DNA of 23,022 bases from a virus. Its lineage: Duplodnaviria > Heunggongvirae > Uroviricota > Caudoviricetes. Made by a program: the position numbers and the translations under genes. Numbering within the stretch: the first letter of the stretch is position 1; every line of letters starts with the position of its first letter. Positions 4,218 through 8,422 of this stretch are shown piece by piece. The stretch lies in IMG/VR virus record IMGVR_UViG_2698536506_000009; one strand, given 5' to 3'. The notes below the pieces were generated by a model. It was not told the DNA's origin and did not search any database. It saw only the letters and a program-made list of their open reading frames with translations.

Positions 4218-4471
4218 ATTAATGGATTAACTATGTCGGTTAAACGACCAGCCAACTGAAAAAGCGGAAACCTGATTACAGGTTGCCAGATAAGGCAATG
4301 AGCTACCTGGCGCGGAACGGACTGATAAGTATGGGGAATGTTTTACGATGAACCTTTAGACTAAAGAGTTTGTAACGCTATGTAAGTGATTTTTTCTGGT
4401 TTAGATATTTATATGTCCGGCCAAATTGAGGTGTGTTTAAATGTAATTGCACATTGATTGTAGGAGGAATA

Positions 4472-4651
4472 ATGAAAAACGCATTGCAGTTTTTGTTTGT
4501 TGCGTTCTGGTTGTTCGCATCATGTATGCCCATCATCTTCACAGCAAGGTATATGGAAAAAGTTGATGTTTTGATATTAATATTTGGATATATAAATGCC
4601 CTTTTTTTAGGGGTGTTCATGGCGGTCATGTGCATTGAATACTGGCGGTAA
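4472..4651 (+). CDS. Small hydrophobic protein, two predicted transmembrane helices (59 aa)
   Basis: AGGAGG at 4462-4467, 4 nt before the ATG. Sequence MKNALQFLFVAFWLFASCMPIIFTARYMEKVDVLILIFGYINALFLGVFMAVMCIEYWR has two hydrophobic segments separated by a short polar loop. Confidence 0.5.
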   Translation: MKNALQFLFVAFWLFASCMPIIFTARYMEKVDVLILIFGYINALFLGVFMAVMCIEYWR

Positions 4652-4899
4652 ATACAGCGAACTCCATTGGTTTAGTTGGATATTTACTGTGCTGGACAAA
4701 AACGGTTTGCGGGGAAATCTTAGTTAAGTAGAATGACTGCGGGTGCTTGAGGCTATCTGCCTCGGGCATGGACACCAACGGCAGATAGAGAAAAGCCCCA
4801 GTTAACATTACGCGTCCTGCAAGACGCTTAACATTAATCTGAGGCCAATTTCATGCTAGACACATGTAGGTTAGCCTCTTACGTGCCGAAAGGCACGGA

Positions 4900-6450
4900 G
4901 AAGCAGGCTATTGTTAACACCAAGCTGTAATGTCCCCTTTGAACCATTCTAAAATGTCCCCAGACAATTCTCTGGGGGATTTTTCATGATCAAAGAGACT
5001 GTTACGATGAGTCATAAGGAACTCCACCGACTTCAGATTATTCAGGAACAAGCTGCGGCACGCATTGGCATTTCTATTCGGCAGGTTAAACGTCTGGTGC
5101 AACGGTATAGAAATGAAGGGCCTTCTGGTCTGGTTTCCCACCGACGTGGAAAGCGTCCTAATAATTCCTTTTCTACTGAATTCAGAGCAACAGTAATTTC
5201 ACTCCTCAAAGGCCGTTACGCTGATTTTGGACCTACGTTTGCGTGCGAAAAATTGCGCGAGATACACGGTTTATCTTTATCCGTTGAAACTCTCAGAAAG
5301 TGGATGATAGAAGAGGGGTTATGGCGTGAACGCCGTCGTAAAATTGCCCGTATATATCAACGCCGCATGCGACGACCATCTTACGGTGAACTGATCCAGA
5401 TTGATGGCTCACCTCATGACTGGTTTGAAAATCGAGGCCCCAGATGTACACTGATCGTTTTCATTGATGATGCCACCAGTGCGTTGATGGCGTTGCGTTT
5501 TGTGCCTGCTGAAACAACCCGGGCTTACATGGAAACCCTCCGGGGTTACCTTAATGATCATGGCGTACCGCTCGCTCTCTACTCTGATAGACACAGTATA
5601 TTCAGGGTAAATAACCCAGAGCGGGAAGGTGAGCTGACCCAGTTCACTCGTGCGATAAAGACACTGGGCATCGAGCCAATCCATGCCAACAGCCCGCAGG
5701 CAAAAGGGCGGGTAGAGCGCGCCAATCAGACACTACAGGACAGGCTGGTCAAAGAAATGCGGCTTCAGAATATCAGTGATATTGAAACAGCAAATGCATG
5801 GTTGCCGACCTTTATTGAAGCCTATAACAACCGGTTCGCTACGTCGCCTCGTACTACTGATAATGCTCATCTTGATGTGCACCATTCTGAAGAGGAACTG
5901 GGTTATATCTTCAGCCTACAGGCGAAGCGCGTTCTGTCTAAAAATCTCACTTTCCAGTACAAAAGCAGTGCGTTTCAGGTACGCAGTGAGGGCCGGGGAT
6001 ATCGACTTAGGCATTCGGTTGTTACTGTATGCGAGAACTTTGACGGTGAAATTAACGTTCTGTATGACGGGAAAGCGCTGGGCTGGGAAAAGTATGTTGA
6101 TGGCCCGGAGCCTATACCACTGGATGATGAAAAGAGTGTCCATGAACGAGTGGATAATGCCCGTATTGATTTACGCTCAAAATACTATGTTAAACCTAAA
6201 GCTGACCATCCCTGGCTTACGCGCCGAACGCAAAGTCATCAGCAAGTTAAGCCCCCGAAGTTACCTAAAAAGAAGCCTGATCCCGATAAAAAAGATTGAA
6301 ACCAAGATCGATTCGGTTGAGTGCATATCCATTCATAGGGTAGATTCTTAAGTCGCGTTTCTGGTGTTCATTTTCGGGTGGTTTGTTACTTGTTTTACCG
6401 GGGATATGCCAGAAACGCGCTGAGTCAGTCTGGGCGGTGCGCGTAATGAG
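4900..6450 (+). mobile_element. Insertion sequence carrying the rve transposase (boundaries approximate)
   Basis: Single transposase ORF flanked by non-coding sequence. I could not identify terminal inverted repeats or a target duplication by eye; only an 8-bp AGGCTATT / AATAGCCT pair (about 4903 and 6462), which could be chance. Confidence 0.3.
4986..6299 (+). CDS. DDE transposase with retroviral-integrase-like (rve) core and N-terminal HTH
   Basis: 437-aa ORF with an N-terminal HTH-like region (RIGISIRQVKRLVQRY), candidate catalytic D in IQIDGS, D in LYSDRHSIF, and the rve hallmark NSPQAKGRVERANQTLQ. Family (IS481-like or ISNCY-like) not resolved. Confidence 0.85.
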   Translation: MIKETVTMSHKELHRLQIIQEQAAARIGISIRQVKRLVQRYRNEGPSGLVSHRRGKRPNNSFSTEFRATVISLLKGRYADFGPTFACEKLREIHGLSLSVETLRKWMIEEGLWRERRRKIARIYQRRMRRPSYGELIQIDGSPHDWFENRGPRCTLIVFIDDATSALMALRFVPAETTRAYMETLRGYLNDHGVPLALYSDRHSIFRVNNPEREGELTQFTRAIKTLGIEPIHANSPQAKGRVERANQTLQDRLVKEMRLQNISDIETANAWLPTFIEAYNNRFATSPRTTDNAHLDVHHSEEELGYIFSLQAKRVLSKNLTFQYKSSAFQVRSEGRGYRLRHSVVTVCENFDGEINVLYDGKALGWEKYVDGPEPIPLDDEKSVHERVDNARIDLRSKYYVKPKADHPWLTRRTQSHQQVKPPKLPKKKPDPDKKD

Positions 6451-6735
6451 GCGTTATGGTAAATAGCCTATGCTAATGTCCGCTAAGAGCAAGAAGCGGA
6501 AGTTGGCAGTTTTGTGGACTGTCCCCACAAAAGTGACTACAGAAATAGTTGCAATTCATAATTGATCATGGGTTGTCAGTTAAACTCGTGGCGATTTAAA
6601 TAGACTAATTGGGAGTGCGTCCATTACTTATATCTTGTAATGTTAACTATCAGAAATGATACAAAGATAATATGTCTTTAAAGAAAAGGCTGATGGCGAA
6701 AAGTGGCCCGATGAGGGCCACAATACGGCTGTCAC

Positions 6736-7068
6736 TTAGACGTAAATATCAATGGTGCCAGCGGTATTTGTATCGTCTTTTTTCTCTTCTTTTTTATCAG
6801 GCTGAACTGTCGCGTCTTCATTCTTTTTCTCTGCCTGCTGCCTTAACAACTGCTCCAGTTGAGCCCAGAGGCTTTCAATTTGCTTCTGTACCAATGCAGC
6901 CATTTCTTTTTTCTGCTGTGTCGTCATCCCCTCTTCCGATGAGATTTTCCCAAGCTTTTCAGTCAGCACCTGAATTTGTCTTGTGATTTTGGCTATTTCT
7001 GATGTTCCTTCCGGGGCGGAGTTGTTTGAAATAACGGTTGAGGTATTTCCCTGAATTGTGACAGACAT
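6736..7068 (-). CDS. flxA: FlxA-like protein
   Basis: 110-aa ORF MSVTIQGNTSTVISNN...TAGTIDIYV matching my recollection of FlxA in length and sequence, preceded by a near-consensus sigma-28 promoter. Confidence 0.8.
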   Translation of the reverse strand: MSVTIQGNTSTVISNNSAPEGTSEIAKITRQIQVLTEKLGKISSEEGMTTQQKKEMAALVQKQIESLWAQLEQLLRQQAEKKNEDATVQPDKKEEKKDDTNTAGTIDIYV

Positions 7069-7091
7069 AGATTTCTCCTTTTAAAAAAGCA

Positions 7092-7118
7092 CTATCGGCA
7101 TGCACAAAAAAATCTTTA
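7092..7118 (-). promoter_or_regulatory. Sigma-28 (FliA) type promoter for flxA
   Basis: Minus strand reads TAAAGATT, 11 nt, GCCGATAG against consensus TAAAGTTT-N11-GCCGATAA. The -10 complement is at 7092-7099 and the -35 at 7111-7118. GGAG sits 6 nt before the flxA ATG. Confidence 0.6.
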
Positions 7119-7270
7119 ATCGTATTTCTTGTGTCATTAATTGTTTGATGTTCAGATTGTTTTCCTCGCGGGCTGGCGCGCCTCAGAAAGTAAAGCTTGT
7201 TGACAGGGGTAAACGTTCGGCAATAATTTTCTGCCGCATGCGGGTGTTGCATAAAACGTGTTACGTTCCT

Positions 7271-7576
7271 TTATCGACAGGTCAGGTCACCGCTCACCCG
7301 CCGACGAGAAAGCAACACTGACATGCTAAAGCAAAAAATAGATGAATAAGTTGAGTTGTGCATATGTAGCCTGACCGTCACAAAGTATATGGTGTCTGTA
7401 CCAGTAAGATGATGGCCGGACTCTTTAAAAACGAGCTGACCTGCACAATACAGGATGGACTTAGCAATGGCTGCTCCTGGCACAAAGCGGACAGTGATCA
7501 CCGTTCTTACGACTACTTTCTGACTTCCTTCGTGACTTGCCCTAAGCATGTTGTAGTGCGATACTTGTAATGACAT
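7271..7576 (-). CDS. ydfV: Hypothetical protein (YdfV-like)
   Basis: 101-aa ORF between flxA and relB, divergent from relB, matching the K-12 Qin position and length of ydfV as I recall them. Confidence 0.55.
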   Translation of the reverse strand: MSLQVSHYNMLRASHEGSQKVVVRTVITVRFVPGAAIAKSILYCAGQLVFKESGHHLTGTDTIYFVTVRLHMHNSTYSSIFCFSMSVLLSRRRVSGDLTCR

Positions 7577-7589
7577 TTGTAATTACAAG
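7564..7589 (+). promoter_or_regulatory. relBE operator/promoter palindrome
   Basis: CTTGTAATGACATTTGTAATTACAAG lies immediately upstream of relB, with repeated TTGTAAT hexads and inverted arms CTTGTAAT / ATTACAAG, consistent with RelB-RelE autoregulation. Confidence 0.5.
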
Positions 7590-7600
7590 AGGTGTAAGAC

Positions 7601-7840
7601 ATGGGTAGCATTAACCTGCGTATTGACGATGAACTTAAAGCGCGTTCTTACGCCGCGCTTGAAAAAATGGGTGTAACTCCTTCTGAAGCGCTTCGTCTCA
7701 TGCTCGAGTATATCGCTGACAATGAACGCTTGCCGTTCAAACAGACACTCCTGAGTGATGAAGATGCTGAACTTGTGGAGATAGTGAAAGAACGGCTTCG
7801 TAATCCTAAGCCAGTACGTGTGACGCTGGATGAACTCTGA
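7601..7840 (+). CDS. relB: RelB antitoxin
   Basis: 79-aa ORF MGSINLRIDDELKARSYA...RVTLDEL. Its stop overlaps the relE start (ATGA). Confidence 0.9.
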   Translation: MGSINLRIDDELKARSYAALEKMGVTPSEALRLMLEYIADNERLPFKQTLLSDEDAELVEIVKERLRNPKPVRVTLDEL

Positions 7841-8127
7841 TGGCGTATTTTCTGGATTTTGACGAGCGGGCACTAAAGGAATGGCGAAAGCTGGGCTCGA
7901 CGGTACGTGAACAGTTGAAAAAGAAGCTGGTTGAAGTACTTGAGTCACCCCGGATTGAAGCAAACAAGCTCCGTGGTATGCCTGATTGTTACAAGATTAA
8001 GCTCCGGTCTTCAGGCTATCGCCTTGTATACCAGGTTATAGACGAGAAAGTTGTCGTTTTCGTGATTTCTGTTGGGAAAAGAGAACGCTCGGAAGTATAT
8101 AGCGAGGCGGTCAAACGCATTCTCTGA
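7840..8127 (+). CDS. relE: RelE mRNA interferase toxin
   Basis: 95-aa ORF MAYFLDFDERALKEWRKLG...SEAVKRIL, translationally coupled to relB. Confidence 0.9.
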   Translation: MAYFLDFDERALKEWRKLGSTVREQLKKKLVEVLESPRIEANKLRGMPDCYKIKLRSSGYRLVYQVIDEKVVVFVISVGKRERSEVYSEAVKRIL

Positions 8128-8198
8128 ACCAAAGCATGACATCTCTGTTTCGCACCGAAGGTGACACTTCTGCTTTGCGTTGACAGGAGAAGCAGGCT

Positions 8199-8354
8199 AT
8201 GAAGCAGCAAAAGGCGATGTTAATCGCCCTGATCGTCATCTGTTTAACCGTCATAGTGACGGCACTGGTAACGAGGAAAGACCTCTGCGAGGTACGAATC
8301 CGAACCGGCCAGACGGAGGTCGCTGTCTTCACAGCTTACGAACCTGAGGAGTAA
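8199..8354 (+). CDS. hokD: Hok-family small membrane toxin (HokD/RelF)
   Basis: 51-codon ORF, too short for the supplied track: MKQQKAMLIALIVICLTVIVTALVTRKDLCEVRIRTGQTEVAVFTAYEPEE. One TM helix and conserved Hok C-terminus, directly downstream of relE. Confidence 0.85.
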   Translation: MKQQKAMLIALIVICLTVIVTALVTRKDLCEVRIRTGQTEVAVFTAYEPEE

Positions 8355-8422
8355 GAGACCCGGCGGGGGAGAAATCCCTCGCCACCTCTGATGTGGCAGG
8401 CATCCTCAACGCACCCGCACTT

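Follow-up and report, generated by a model that had tools for sequence, protein, structure and literature searches.

Several described systems resemble parts of the locus reported here. For the hok/sok loci of plasmid R1 (parB) and the Escherichia coli chromosome, regulation of the hok mRNA has been summarized in terms of the tac/fbi, ucb, and dcb elements and Sok-triggered decay by RNase III (PMC9841398). Within the IS1202 family of insertion sequences (ISs), the ISAjo2/ISAba32 subgroup uses pdif/xrs sites as targets, with insertion 5 bp away on the XerC side, and this 5-bp subgroup is the only one stated to be site-specific (PMC10132070; bioRxiv 10.1101/2022.12.17.520857). A second internal transposase (Tnp) site near each end has been described for the family (PMC10132070), and target-site duplications of 15 to 17 bp have been given for the ISTde1 subgroup (bioRxiv 10.1101/2022.12.17.520857). 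ISEsa1, whose transposase was placed in a separate third subgroup together with ISCARN112, is listed as 1609 bp in length with no detectable duplication (PMC10132070). In E. coli K-12, relB, relE, and relF (hokD) are co-transcribed (PMC3598666). A survey of hok loci, available as a preprint, mentions IS genes near them in general terms only. We analyzed a 23,022-nucleotide stretch of viral DNA (Caudoviricetes; IMG/VR record IMGVR_UViG_2698536506_000009), hereafter the window, in which a hairpin-rich segment (4740–4985) lies directly upstream of a transposase gene (tnp). Our data indicated that this segment is a junction, where the leader of a hok/sok locus carrying hairpins 1 and 2 abuts the left end of a transposon carrying hairpin 3, and we assign a probability of roughly 85% to this explanation as a whole. 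The hairpins are ordinary components of known kinds, belonging to a hok/sok leader and to an IS left end.

The preliminary description of this segment listed three stem-loops, and all three could be read from the sequence within 1 nt of their reported positions on the plus strand. Hairpin 1 pairs CTATCTGCC (4753–4761) with GGCAGATAG (4780–4788), as also seen in the RNA fold. Hairpin 2 is a nested structure in which TAGCCT (4872–4877) and CGTGCC (4882–4887), followed by a GAAA loop, pair with GGCACG (4892–4897) and AGGCTA (4905–4910). The core of hairpin 3 (TCCCCAG, 4957–4963, with CTGGGGA) proved to be part of a longer stem at 4951–4983, comprising 13 bp and one bulge, in which 4951–4955 and 4957–4964 pair with 4971–4978 and 4979–4983. 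Only 2 nt separate this stem from the ATG at 4986, and the Shine-Dalgarno (SD) sequence of tnp (GGGGGA, 4974–4979) and most of the spacer lie within it. When each hairpin was folded as RNA and compared with 200 dinucleotide shuffles, hairpin 1 reached −13.7 kcal/mol (z, −3.75; 0 of 200 shuffles equally stable), hairpin 2 reached −19.8 kcal/mol (z, −4.24; 1 of 200), and hairpin 3 reached −14.1 kcal/mol (z, −2.37; 4 of 200), while 4741–4990 folded as a single RNA gave −87.4 kcal/mol (z, −5.08). The three hairpins are genuine and exceed chance expectation; hairpin 3 taken alone is moderately unusual, and its weight comes from its conservation across relatives.

Rfam and alignment with an unoccupied locus (L001) identified the region 4741–4911 (plus strand) as the regulatory 5′ half of a hok/sok locus of the hokD type. 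The match to RF01794 scored 104.1 bits (gathering score, 59; E value, 5e-23) and spanned the complete model (1–157 of 157) at 4741–4912 on the plus strand. Since the consensus of this family ends in GGAG followed by AUG, the matched strand is the hok mRNA sense, with the tac element at its 5′ end and the hok start codon at its 3′ end, although the family itself is named 'sok'. In a BLAST comparison with complete E. coli genomes, positions 4300–4911 were approximately 96% identical to loci with an intact hokD directly after this stretch. The leader is 96.7% identical to L001 up to 4911, and the hokD coding sequence of L001 begins at the base aligned with 4910, so that the window leader breaks off after the second base of the hok ATG. 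The 3′ half is the hokD (relF) toxin open reading frame (ORF) at 8199–8354 (plus strand; Pfam HOK_GEF, 1.2e-23; L001 alignment; RefSeq), which lies 3274 bp away from the leader and behind relBE, as in a disrupted member of the hok/sok family. The tac sequence GGGTGCTTGAGG (4741–4752) is complementary over 12 pairs with one bulge to an fbi-like sequence, CCTCAACGCACCC (8404–8416), located 3′ of hokD, which is a further sign that the two halves belong together. Judged from these alignments, 4741–4911 is a prophage hok mRNA leader and presumed Sok-gene region that was split by the element, and not IS DNA. It shares with hok/sok of R1 and the chromosomal E. coli loci the leader from end to end, the tac helix, the hairpin before the SD, an antisense strand that folds like a Sok terminator hairpin, the HOK_GEF product, and the complement of tac; it differs in the 3274-bp split, in a toxin ORF that has neither the Sok target nor the tac/ucb controls, and in a presumed Sok −35 element reading GTGCCT.

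The adjoining DNA (4912–8185) is a 3274-bp transposon of the IS1202 family (ISEsa1 type) made up of a left inverted repeat (IRL), tnp, flxA, ydfV, relB, relE, and a right inverted repeat (IRR). Identity among copies in five contexts begins exactly at 4912 (TGTTAACACC...), and copies of approximately 98% identity occur in differing contexts on plasmids of Enterobacter, Klebsiella, and Salmonella. The IRL (4912–4937, plus strand; TGTTAACACCAAGCTGTAATGTCCCC), which holds the outer transposase box AATGTCCCC, and the IRR (8160–8185, minus strand; reverse complement TGTCAACGCAAAGCAGAAGTGTCACC, IRR form GGTGACACTTCTGCTTTGCGTTGACA) agree at 19 of 26 positions; the element begins with TGTTAAC and ends with GTTGACA, giving TGT...ACA termini. 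TGTC boxes are found at positions 20–23 and approximately 44–48 from each end, the second lying about 24 bp inward. On the left, this second box is an inner subterminal repeat (4943–4961, plus strand; ACCATTCTAAAATGTCCCC), a direct repeat 24 bp from the first box that is kept in relatives down to 31% Tnp identity, and a second ATGTCA box occurs near the IRR at approximately 8137–8142. The target-site duplication, GGAGAAGCAGGCTAT (15 bp), is present at 4897–4911 and, in an identical right copy that provides hokD with its SD and the 'AT' of its ATG, at 8186–8200, and it is single-copy in the unoccupied L001. The terminal repeats, the perfect 15-bp duplication, and the empty site together define the unit as 4912–8185 (3274 bp). 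The IS named in the preliminary description is not finished with the transposase gene; the element continues to 8185 and takes in flxA, ydfV, and relBE.

To characterize the insertion sites, the left flanks from a 26-nt IRL scan of metagenome contigs were pooled with those of the earlier loci, yielding 51 distinct 60-nt left flanks. The motif TAGCC[T/G]CTT was present in 33 of these 51 and ended 29 to 33 nt (mode, 31–32) before the junction, with at least 12 hok leaders represented; in the window, the insertion lies 31 nt downstream of TAGCCTCTT. Further flanks derived from hok were recognized in L016, the L094 group, L116, L136, L156 (where the flank consists of the IRR and duplication of another element), and L039. 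All hok-leader flanks meet the IRL in one orientation except that of L021, in which the same site is apparently reversed (judged by eye). The distance from the motif does not change when the start codon has a different position, as in L014, where the insertion point falls 11 nt inside the ORF. Within each locus, both duplication copies agree, but they differ between loci, and 9 of the 16 distinct right flanks run directly into one of six different Hok ORFs. Because the junctions fall within a 5-nt window, in a single orientation and with locus-specific duplications, the insertion looks like site-specific targeting of hok leaders. The genes common to the elements (tnp, relB, and relE) include no evident accessory targeting gene. 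Approximately 10 of the 51 flanks are not hok-like, and this counts against an absolute rule; hok targeting is thus a strong preference. Apart from L018, the non-hok targets showed no common motif with hok leaders. The non-hok site of L018 (8880–8926) has TAGCC...AAAGGCA in the hok register with a 1-nt offset and a 16-bp duplication, a match that hints at which target bases are recognized.

These flanks also bear on two other explanations of the locus. The preliminary description had suggested that the region might be an IS end or a structured RNA; the latter holds for hairpins 1 and 2, and the former fails for 4740–4911. At first sight, the finding that 33 of the 51 distinct left flanks carry similar hairpin-rich sequence directly upstream resembles conservation of part of the element, as expected if all of 4740–4985 were the structured left end of an insertion sequence. 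However, these upstream sequences are different hok paralogues that, when aligned, differ at many positions, whereas the element is at least 98% identical, and unrelated flanks are found at the copies in L003, L004, L010, L018, and L078. The preliminary description itself had named copies without the upstream sequence as the observation that would mark it as prophage DNA, and such copies exist for 4740–4911 (L003, L004, L010, and L018), the element starting exactly at 4912. With an empty site (L001), varied flanks, and a duplication that abuts the TGT at 4912, the proposal that the whole segment is an IS end is refuted, and we give it almost no credence. It could alternatively be argued that the association with hok arose from selection for hok inactivation or from the homologous spread of one ancient insertion, and not from target choice, given that hok loci are toxic and that many of the 51 flanks are close variants of a few insertions. 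IS-disrupted hok loci are reportedly also found in K-12, in keeping with such selection or recombination. Neither process would easily account for junctions confined to 5 nt at a set spacing from TAGCCTCTT, also when the ATG has a different position (L014), for the uniform orientation relative to the IRL (save the apparently reversed L021), or for duplications of 13 to 15 bp that are identical within a locus but different between loci and lie upstream of six Hok ORFs. Tandem second insertions at the same site (L022 and L156) and the survival of the hok ORF and its SD also speak against them, and we consider this explanation very unlikely compared with the choice of hok leaders as targets.

Hairpin 3 (4951–4983, plus strand), in which the region of the inner box pairs with the SD and spacer of tnp, lies wholly within the element, and all close copies have it unchanged. 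The preliminary description had raised the possibility that it occludes the ribosome-binding site of the transposase, and predicted folds bore this out for the mobile element. In minimum free energy folds of the interval between the inner box and the start codon, the SD was paired in all 20 of 20 relatives, which span 31% to 98% transposase identity. The partner of the SD in these relatives is the inner box or the sequence just after it, and the arm sequences vary (UCCCCAG/CUGGGGA; UCCCCG/CGGGGA; CCCCUUUUG/CAGGAGGGG; CCUUCCGA/UCGGGAGG; CCUUCUUUG/CAAAGGAGG; UACCUCGCUA/UAGUGAGGUA). When 18 tnp leaders were compared with 37 SD-bearing genes of the same loci, the leaders showed a mean z of −2.15 versus −0.45 in the controls (Mann-Whitney, p of about 1e-5) and a pairing probability of the SD window of 0.72 versus 0.52 (p of about 1e-4), both p values being generous since the tnp sequences are related. 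In a MAFFT alignment of 10 tnp leaders, 77.5% of the paired cells were able to pair, versus 71% in shuffles (n = 500), and the covariation score was 0.197 versus 0.096, with none of the 500 shuffles scoring as high; the given register also surpassed all slid ones. Three apical pairs show compensatory changes, although the covariation support is modest, with indels shifting the register of the stem.

In the model that we favor, hairpin 3 most likely keeps transcripts from outside the element from yielding transposase, perhaps with some termination. In RNA that reads into the element from its left side, for which the co-directional hok promoter would be one source, UCCCCAG and the flanking A/U would sequester the tnp SD and spacer and block ribosome loading, and the U-run of the hairpin may also stop part of the read-through. 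A candidate −10 element of tnp (TAAAAT, 4950–4955) would place its +1 at approximately 4962, within the 5′ arm; a transcript starting there would leave the SD free, and the fold of an RNA beginning at 4962 indeed has the GGGG of the SD unpaired. We infer that this masking would control translation in vivo. Left-end hairpins are known to protect IS10 and IS50 against read-through, and the present element is similar in having a left-end inverted repeat able to sequester the tnp start in outside transcripts; the mechanism of IS10/IS50 is defined by a native tnp start site, whereas here the start is a candidate only.

Two other readings of hairpin 3 were weighed against translational masking. It could act mainly as an intrinsic terminator or attenuator of transcription from the hok promoter, as suggested by a terminator scan that flagged it (8-bp stem with 5 G-C pairs; tail, ATTTTTCATG) and by the position of the element, which is usually co-directional with, and just downstream of, that promoter. 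The U-run, in the tail ATTTTTC, is short, however, and it is missing from relatives that retain SD pairing (among them Hahella, Chromatiales, and chlamydial and Uhrbacteria metagenome-assembled genomes [MAGs]), such that the tail is confined to the enterobacterial clade while pairing of the SD, and not the U-tail, is the constant of the family. A predominantly terminating role is therefore possible but doubtful, and within the enterobacterial clade the two roles are compatible. The hairpin might instead be a by-product, devoid of regulatory function, of a C-rich box (GTCCCC) situated beside a G-rich SD, as the inner transposase box, conserved for DNA binding, coincides with its 5′ arm, and its single-sequence z is just −2.4. 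Yet the anti-SD sequence adjoins the box instead of coinciding with it in several relatives (L054, CCUUCCGA/UCGGGAGG; L064, CCUUCUUUG/CAAAGGAGG; L068, UACCUCGCUA/UAGUGAGGUA), tnp leaders are more structured and their SDs more paired than those of the SD-bearing control genes, the apical pairs covary, and the right-end boxes have no equivalent hairpin. We regard the by-product explanation as unlikely. Several points nonetheless weigh against the masking model. The set of tnp leaders is not phylogenetically independent, the low single-sequence z applies here as well, and some of the complementarity could be incidental, since any G-rich SD will find a pairing partner in a C-rich transposase box. 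A native transcript that would escape hairpin 3 is hypothetical, and a sigma-70 consensus scan of 4640–5060 returned no promoter for hok, Sok, or tnp. Moreover, the window transposase lacks 9 amino acids (QESINRHIT) at about codon 19, in the N-terminal helix-turn-helix (HTH) region, which are present in all plasmid-borne and distant relatives; by this comparison, the window (Qin-prophage) copy is probably immobile or defective, and regulation of tnp in this copy may be moot.

Related loci were collected by a transposase scan with one genome per species. An IRL/IRR pair of the window type bounds elements of 2575 to 9083 bp (2.6 to 9.1 kb) flanked by exact repeats of 13 to 16 bp in all but two cases (L022, 10 bp beside a second element; L078, 15 bp with 2 mismatches), and eight of these elements occupy hok leaders, with six different Hok ORFs following them. 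The IRR 25-mer closes elements in L006, L008–L014, L017–L019, L022, L023, L025, and L078, and it also occurs in K-12 (L002) before hokD. In all elements that the window-type IRR closes, the order at the right end is relB-relE-IRR, and relE-IRR was common to 12 of 12 aligned right ends with varied cargo. In L019, the transposase is 79% identical, whereas relB and relE are 97% and 93% identical, respectively. These alignments indicate that relBE is a fixed module beside the IRR in the ISEsa1 clade plus L019 only. The cargo comprises flxA and ydfV in the window; annotated ncrY/ncrC in L003–L005; a 203-amino-acid membrane protein and a 307-amino-acid protein resembling by eye a cation-diffusion-facilitator (CDF) transporter in L008, L010, L018, and L023, with a nested IS in some; apparent arsenic-resistance genes and chloride-channel-like and glycosyltransferase-like proteins in L019; and LysR-like regulators and membrane proteins in L022 and L025 (the L019, L022, and L025 sets named by eye). 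Two Scandinavium elements, L024 (8927–16878, 8.0 kb) and L038 (8927–13201, 4.3 kb), encode transposases of approximately 80% identity and have a variant right end (AGGCCTTTTCTGCTTTGCGTTGACA) with duplications of 16 bp and 15 bp, respectively. A search for relBE in these two was negative and their targets are not hok, which restricts relBE and hok targeting to the ISEsa1 clade. Simple ISs occur further away, with at least 12 copies of 1449 bp in Hahella sp. SMD15-11 (62% transposase identity) and copies of 1466 bp in a Rhabdochlamydiaceae MAG, both having TGTTAGCCC... and ...TTGACA ends and duplications of 15 to 16 bp, the size seen in relatives at 50% to 62% identity. In L022 (5627–10527 and beyond) and L156 (approximately 11730), two related elements stand head to tail and share one duplication copy (IRR-duplication-IRL), indicating that a resident copy gives the hok site no protection from a second insertion.

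Compared with the ISAjo2/ISAba32 subgroup, the present element has in common the family, the TGT...ACA ends, imperfect repeats of approximately 26 bp, a second internal box, and insertion in one orientation at a set spacing from a conserved short sequence often found on plasmids. It differs in the target (hok/sok leader versus Xer site), the distance (31 nt versus 5 bp), the duplication (13–16 bp versus 5–6 bp), and the presence of relBE and cargo. The ISTde1 subgroup resembles it in the 15- to 17-bp duplication class and the TGT termini, but consists of simple ISs of 1.3 to 1.7 kb without passengers. Simple ISs of the IS1202 family in general measure approximately 1.3 to 2.0 kb and have no passenger genes, whereas the element described here is 3274 bp, its counterparts elsewhere span 2.6 to 9.1 kb, and relBE is always present, mostly together with cargo, which is the behavior of a transposon or 'transporter IS'. 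Toxin-antitoxin modules are reportedly found inside Tn3-family transposons, and the element resembles these in having a toxin-antitoxin pair as a fixed part. Neither an SD-masking hairpin nor a fixed toxin-antitoxin pair is reported for the IS1202 family in PMC10132070 or bioRxiv 10.1101/2022.12.17.520857, and we found no literature linking ISEsa1 or IS1202 to hok, relBE, these ends, the hairpin, or the promoter.

On balance, we consider it probable that ISEsa1 is the left part of enterobacterial transposons of 2.6 to 9 kb with a fixed relBE pair, variable metal-resistance or other cargo, duplications of 13 to 16 bp, one-orientation homing to hok/sok loci approximately 31 nt past TAGCCTCTT and between the SD and start codon of hok, and an SD-masking hairpin on the inner box, and that relBE and relF/hokD of K-12 are a fossil of such an insertion. 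The duplication of ISEsa1 was apparently missed owing to a true right end located beyond relBE and the cargo. This step assumes from the 1609-bp length and the 'no TSD' (target-site duplication) remark that the right end was set at ISfinder where differently loaded copies diverge, which would mask the duplication. If correct, the proposal would add a second site-specific lineage to the IS1202 family, aimed at type I toxin-antitoxin loci that are abundant on conjugative plasmids and prophages, and hok targeting would provide a route onto plasmids for nickel, arsenic, and cation-efflux cargo. The element may also offer a tractable system for target recognition by a one-protein, TnsB-like transposase.

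The same insertion bears on the relBEF operon of the Qin prophage in K-12. K-12 (L002) matches the window from 6115 onward only and keeps the right 2.07 kb of the transposon; the hok leader, the IRL, and 1130 bp from the start of tnp are gone. The final 49 codons of tnp make up ydfW (window 6150–6299; L002 2501–2685), and ydfX is truncated at the same deletion joint. The IRR, the right duplication copy, and hokD are retained, with the IRR 25-mer ending 14 bp before hokD, and the 58-bp relE-hokD spacer, the gene order, and the sequence are alike in the window and K-12. The comparison thus indicates that the K-12 relBEF unit is the right end of the transposon fused to the 3′ half of hok, the 5′ half of which survives at 4741–4911 of the window. 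In K-12, the deletion joining ydfX′ to the 3′ end of tnp removed the leader, the IRL, and the 5′ part of tnp, and the transposon origin is consequently not visible there. Insertion at the hok start codon duplicated 15 bp, such that the hokD ORF kept an SD and ATG; hokD, now behind relBE and the IRR, is cut off from the tac and Sok-target controls and fed by relBE transcription. The relBE-hokD arrangement, long used as a toxin-antitoxin model, is then explained as a transposon in a hok locus, with the 58-bp spacer representing the right end of the transposon and the hokD SD representing the target duplication.

Other features of the hok leader follow the hok/sok scheme. A putative promoter on the plus strand (−35, TTTGCG, 4706–4711; 17-nt spacer; −10, TAGAAT, 4729–4734) was read by hand, and the +1 of the hok mRNA would be at approximately G4741, as placed from the start of the Rfam leader model. 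Hairpin 1 is the inner part (4753–4788, plus strand) of the first helix of that model according to the fold and the Rfam consensus structure; in its outer part, GGGUGCUU (4741–4748) pairs with AAGCCCC (approximately 4792–4798). By its position in the published scheme (PMC9841398), this helix, which is not named in the model output, would be the tac/ucb stem. Hairpin 2 (4872–4910, plus strand; outer TAGCCU/AGGCUA and inner CGUGCC-GAAA-GGCACG) is the stem-loop just before the hok SD and contains both the conserved motif TAGCCTCTT (4872–4880), which is kept in the leaders of at least 12 hok paralogues, and the SD itself (GGAG, 4897–4900). The presumed Sok antisense RNA gene (4787–4861, minus strand) would comprise a single-stranded 5′ part, a long terminator hairpin, and a U-run; the minus-strand fold of 4797–4868 reached −24.3 kcal/mol (z, −3.56), with GGGGCUUUUCUCU after it. 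The position of this gene was assigned by homology with R1 Sok. Its presumed promoter (−10, TAACCT, 4873–4868; −35, GTGCCT, 4896–4891; minus strand) lies inside hairpin 2, with the −35 candidate reading GTGCCT here versus TTGCCT in intact loci.

A short ORF of 25 codons (4853–4930, plus strand) begins from an AUG at the mok-start position and crosses the junction into the IRL, ending with TAA at 4928–4930. In L006, a 21-amino-acid 'DUF5431 family protein' is annotated at the equivalent position. Unlike mok of plasmid R1, this AUG shares its reading frame with the hok ATG in the hokD-type locus (L001, around position 2055), and the ORF is therefore described by position and not called mok. A match to the ceN48 snoRNA at 4754–4852 (23 bits versus a gathering score of 70) was attributed to chance. 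Just upstream of the putative hok promoter, a small hydrophobic ORF (4433–4651; 59–72 amino acids; MKNALQFLFVAFWLFASCMPIIF...) had no Pfam match, and some intact hokD loci have a 'hypothetical protein' annotated beneath the equivalent stretch.

Within the transposon, tnp (4986–6299, plus strand) encodes a 437-amino-acid IS1202-like transposase of the ISEsa1 type as judged from Pfam and RefSeq names; intact plasmid copies, such as those of pMS7884B and pEnt261, encode 446 amino acids. The Pfam families HTH_32, HTH_29, and HTH_28 were above the cut-off, and rve_3 was marginal (24.4 bits, under the cut-off of 26.5); RefSeq calls the 98%-identical copies 'IS1202-like element ISEsa1 family transposase'. 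The gene is followed by a conserved noncoding block (6300–6504) that is present in all ISEsa1-type copies whatever their cargo. Homology between differently loaded elements stops at approximately 6504, beyond which ncrY-ncrC is found in some and flxA-ydfV-relB in others. This block holds a perfect 11-bp inverted repeat (6354–6364 and 6409–6419), and the cargo starts right after it. At the start of the flxA-type cargo, a hairpin (6502–6540; TTTTGTGG-ACTGTCC-CCACAAAA) carries a TGTCCCC box in the direct orientation of the left-end boxes. The only candidate for an internal right repeat near the tnp stop (6641–6650, TGTTAAC) was rejected as a 10-nt near-palindrome with no more match to the IRL and no duplication. 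An Rfam search of 6280–8260 gave no match at E values up to 1.

The remaining genes of the element are flxA (6736–7068, minus strand; Pfam FlxA and RefSeq) and ydfV (7271–7576, minus strand; RefSeq), which form the cargo, followed by relB (7601–7840, plus strand; Pfam RelB) and relE (7840–8127, plus strand; Pfam ParE_toxin), which together make a type II toxin-antitoxin pair. The operator region upstream of relB (7565–7588; TTGTAATGACATTTGTAATTACAA) has the 7-mer TGTAATG in common with the outer box of the IRL (4926–4932; GCTGTAATGTCCCC), which could be a coincidence or could reflect RelB binding linked to the element ends. Elsewhere in the window, Rfam matches at gathering score were obtained at 11758–12150, 14660–15045, and 19482–19680, comprising the cspA thermoregulator (twice) and IS009; the two cspA thermoregulator matches correspond to the 5′ leaders of the Qin prophage genes cspB and cspI.

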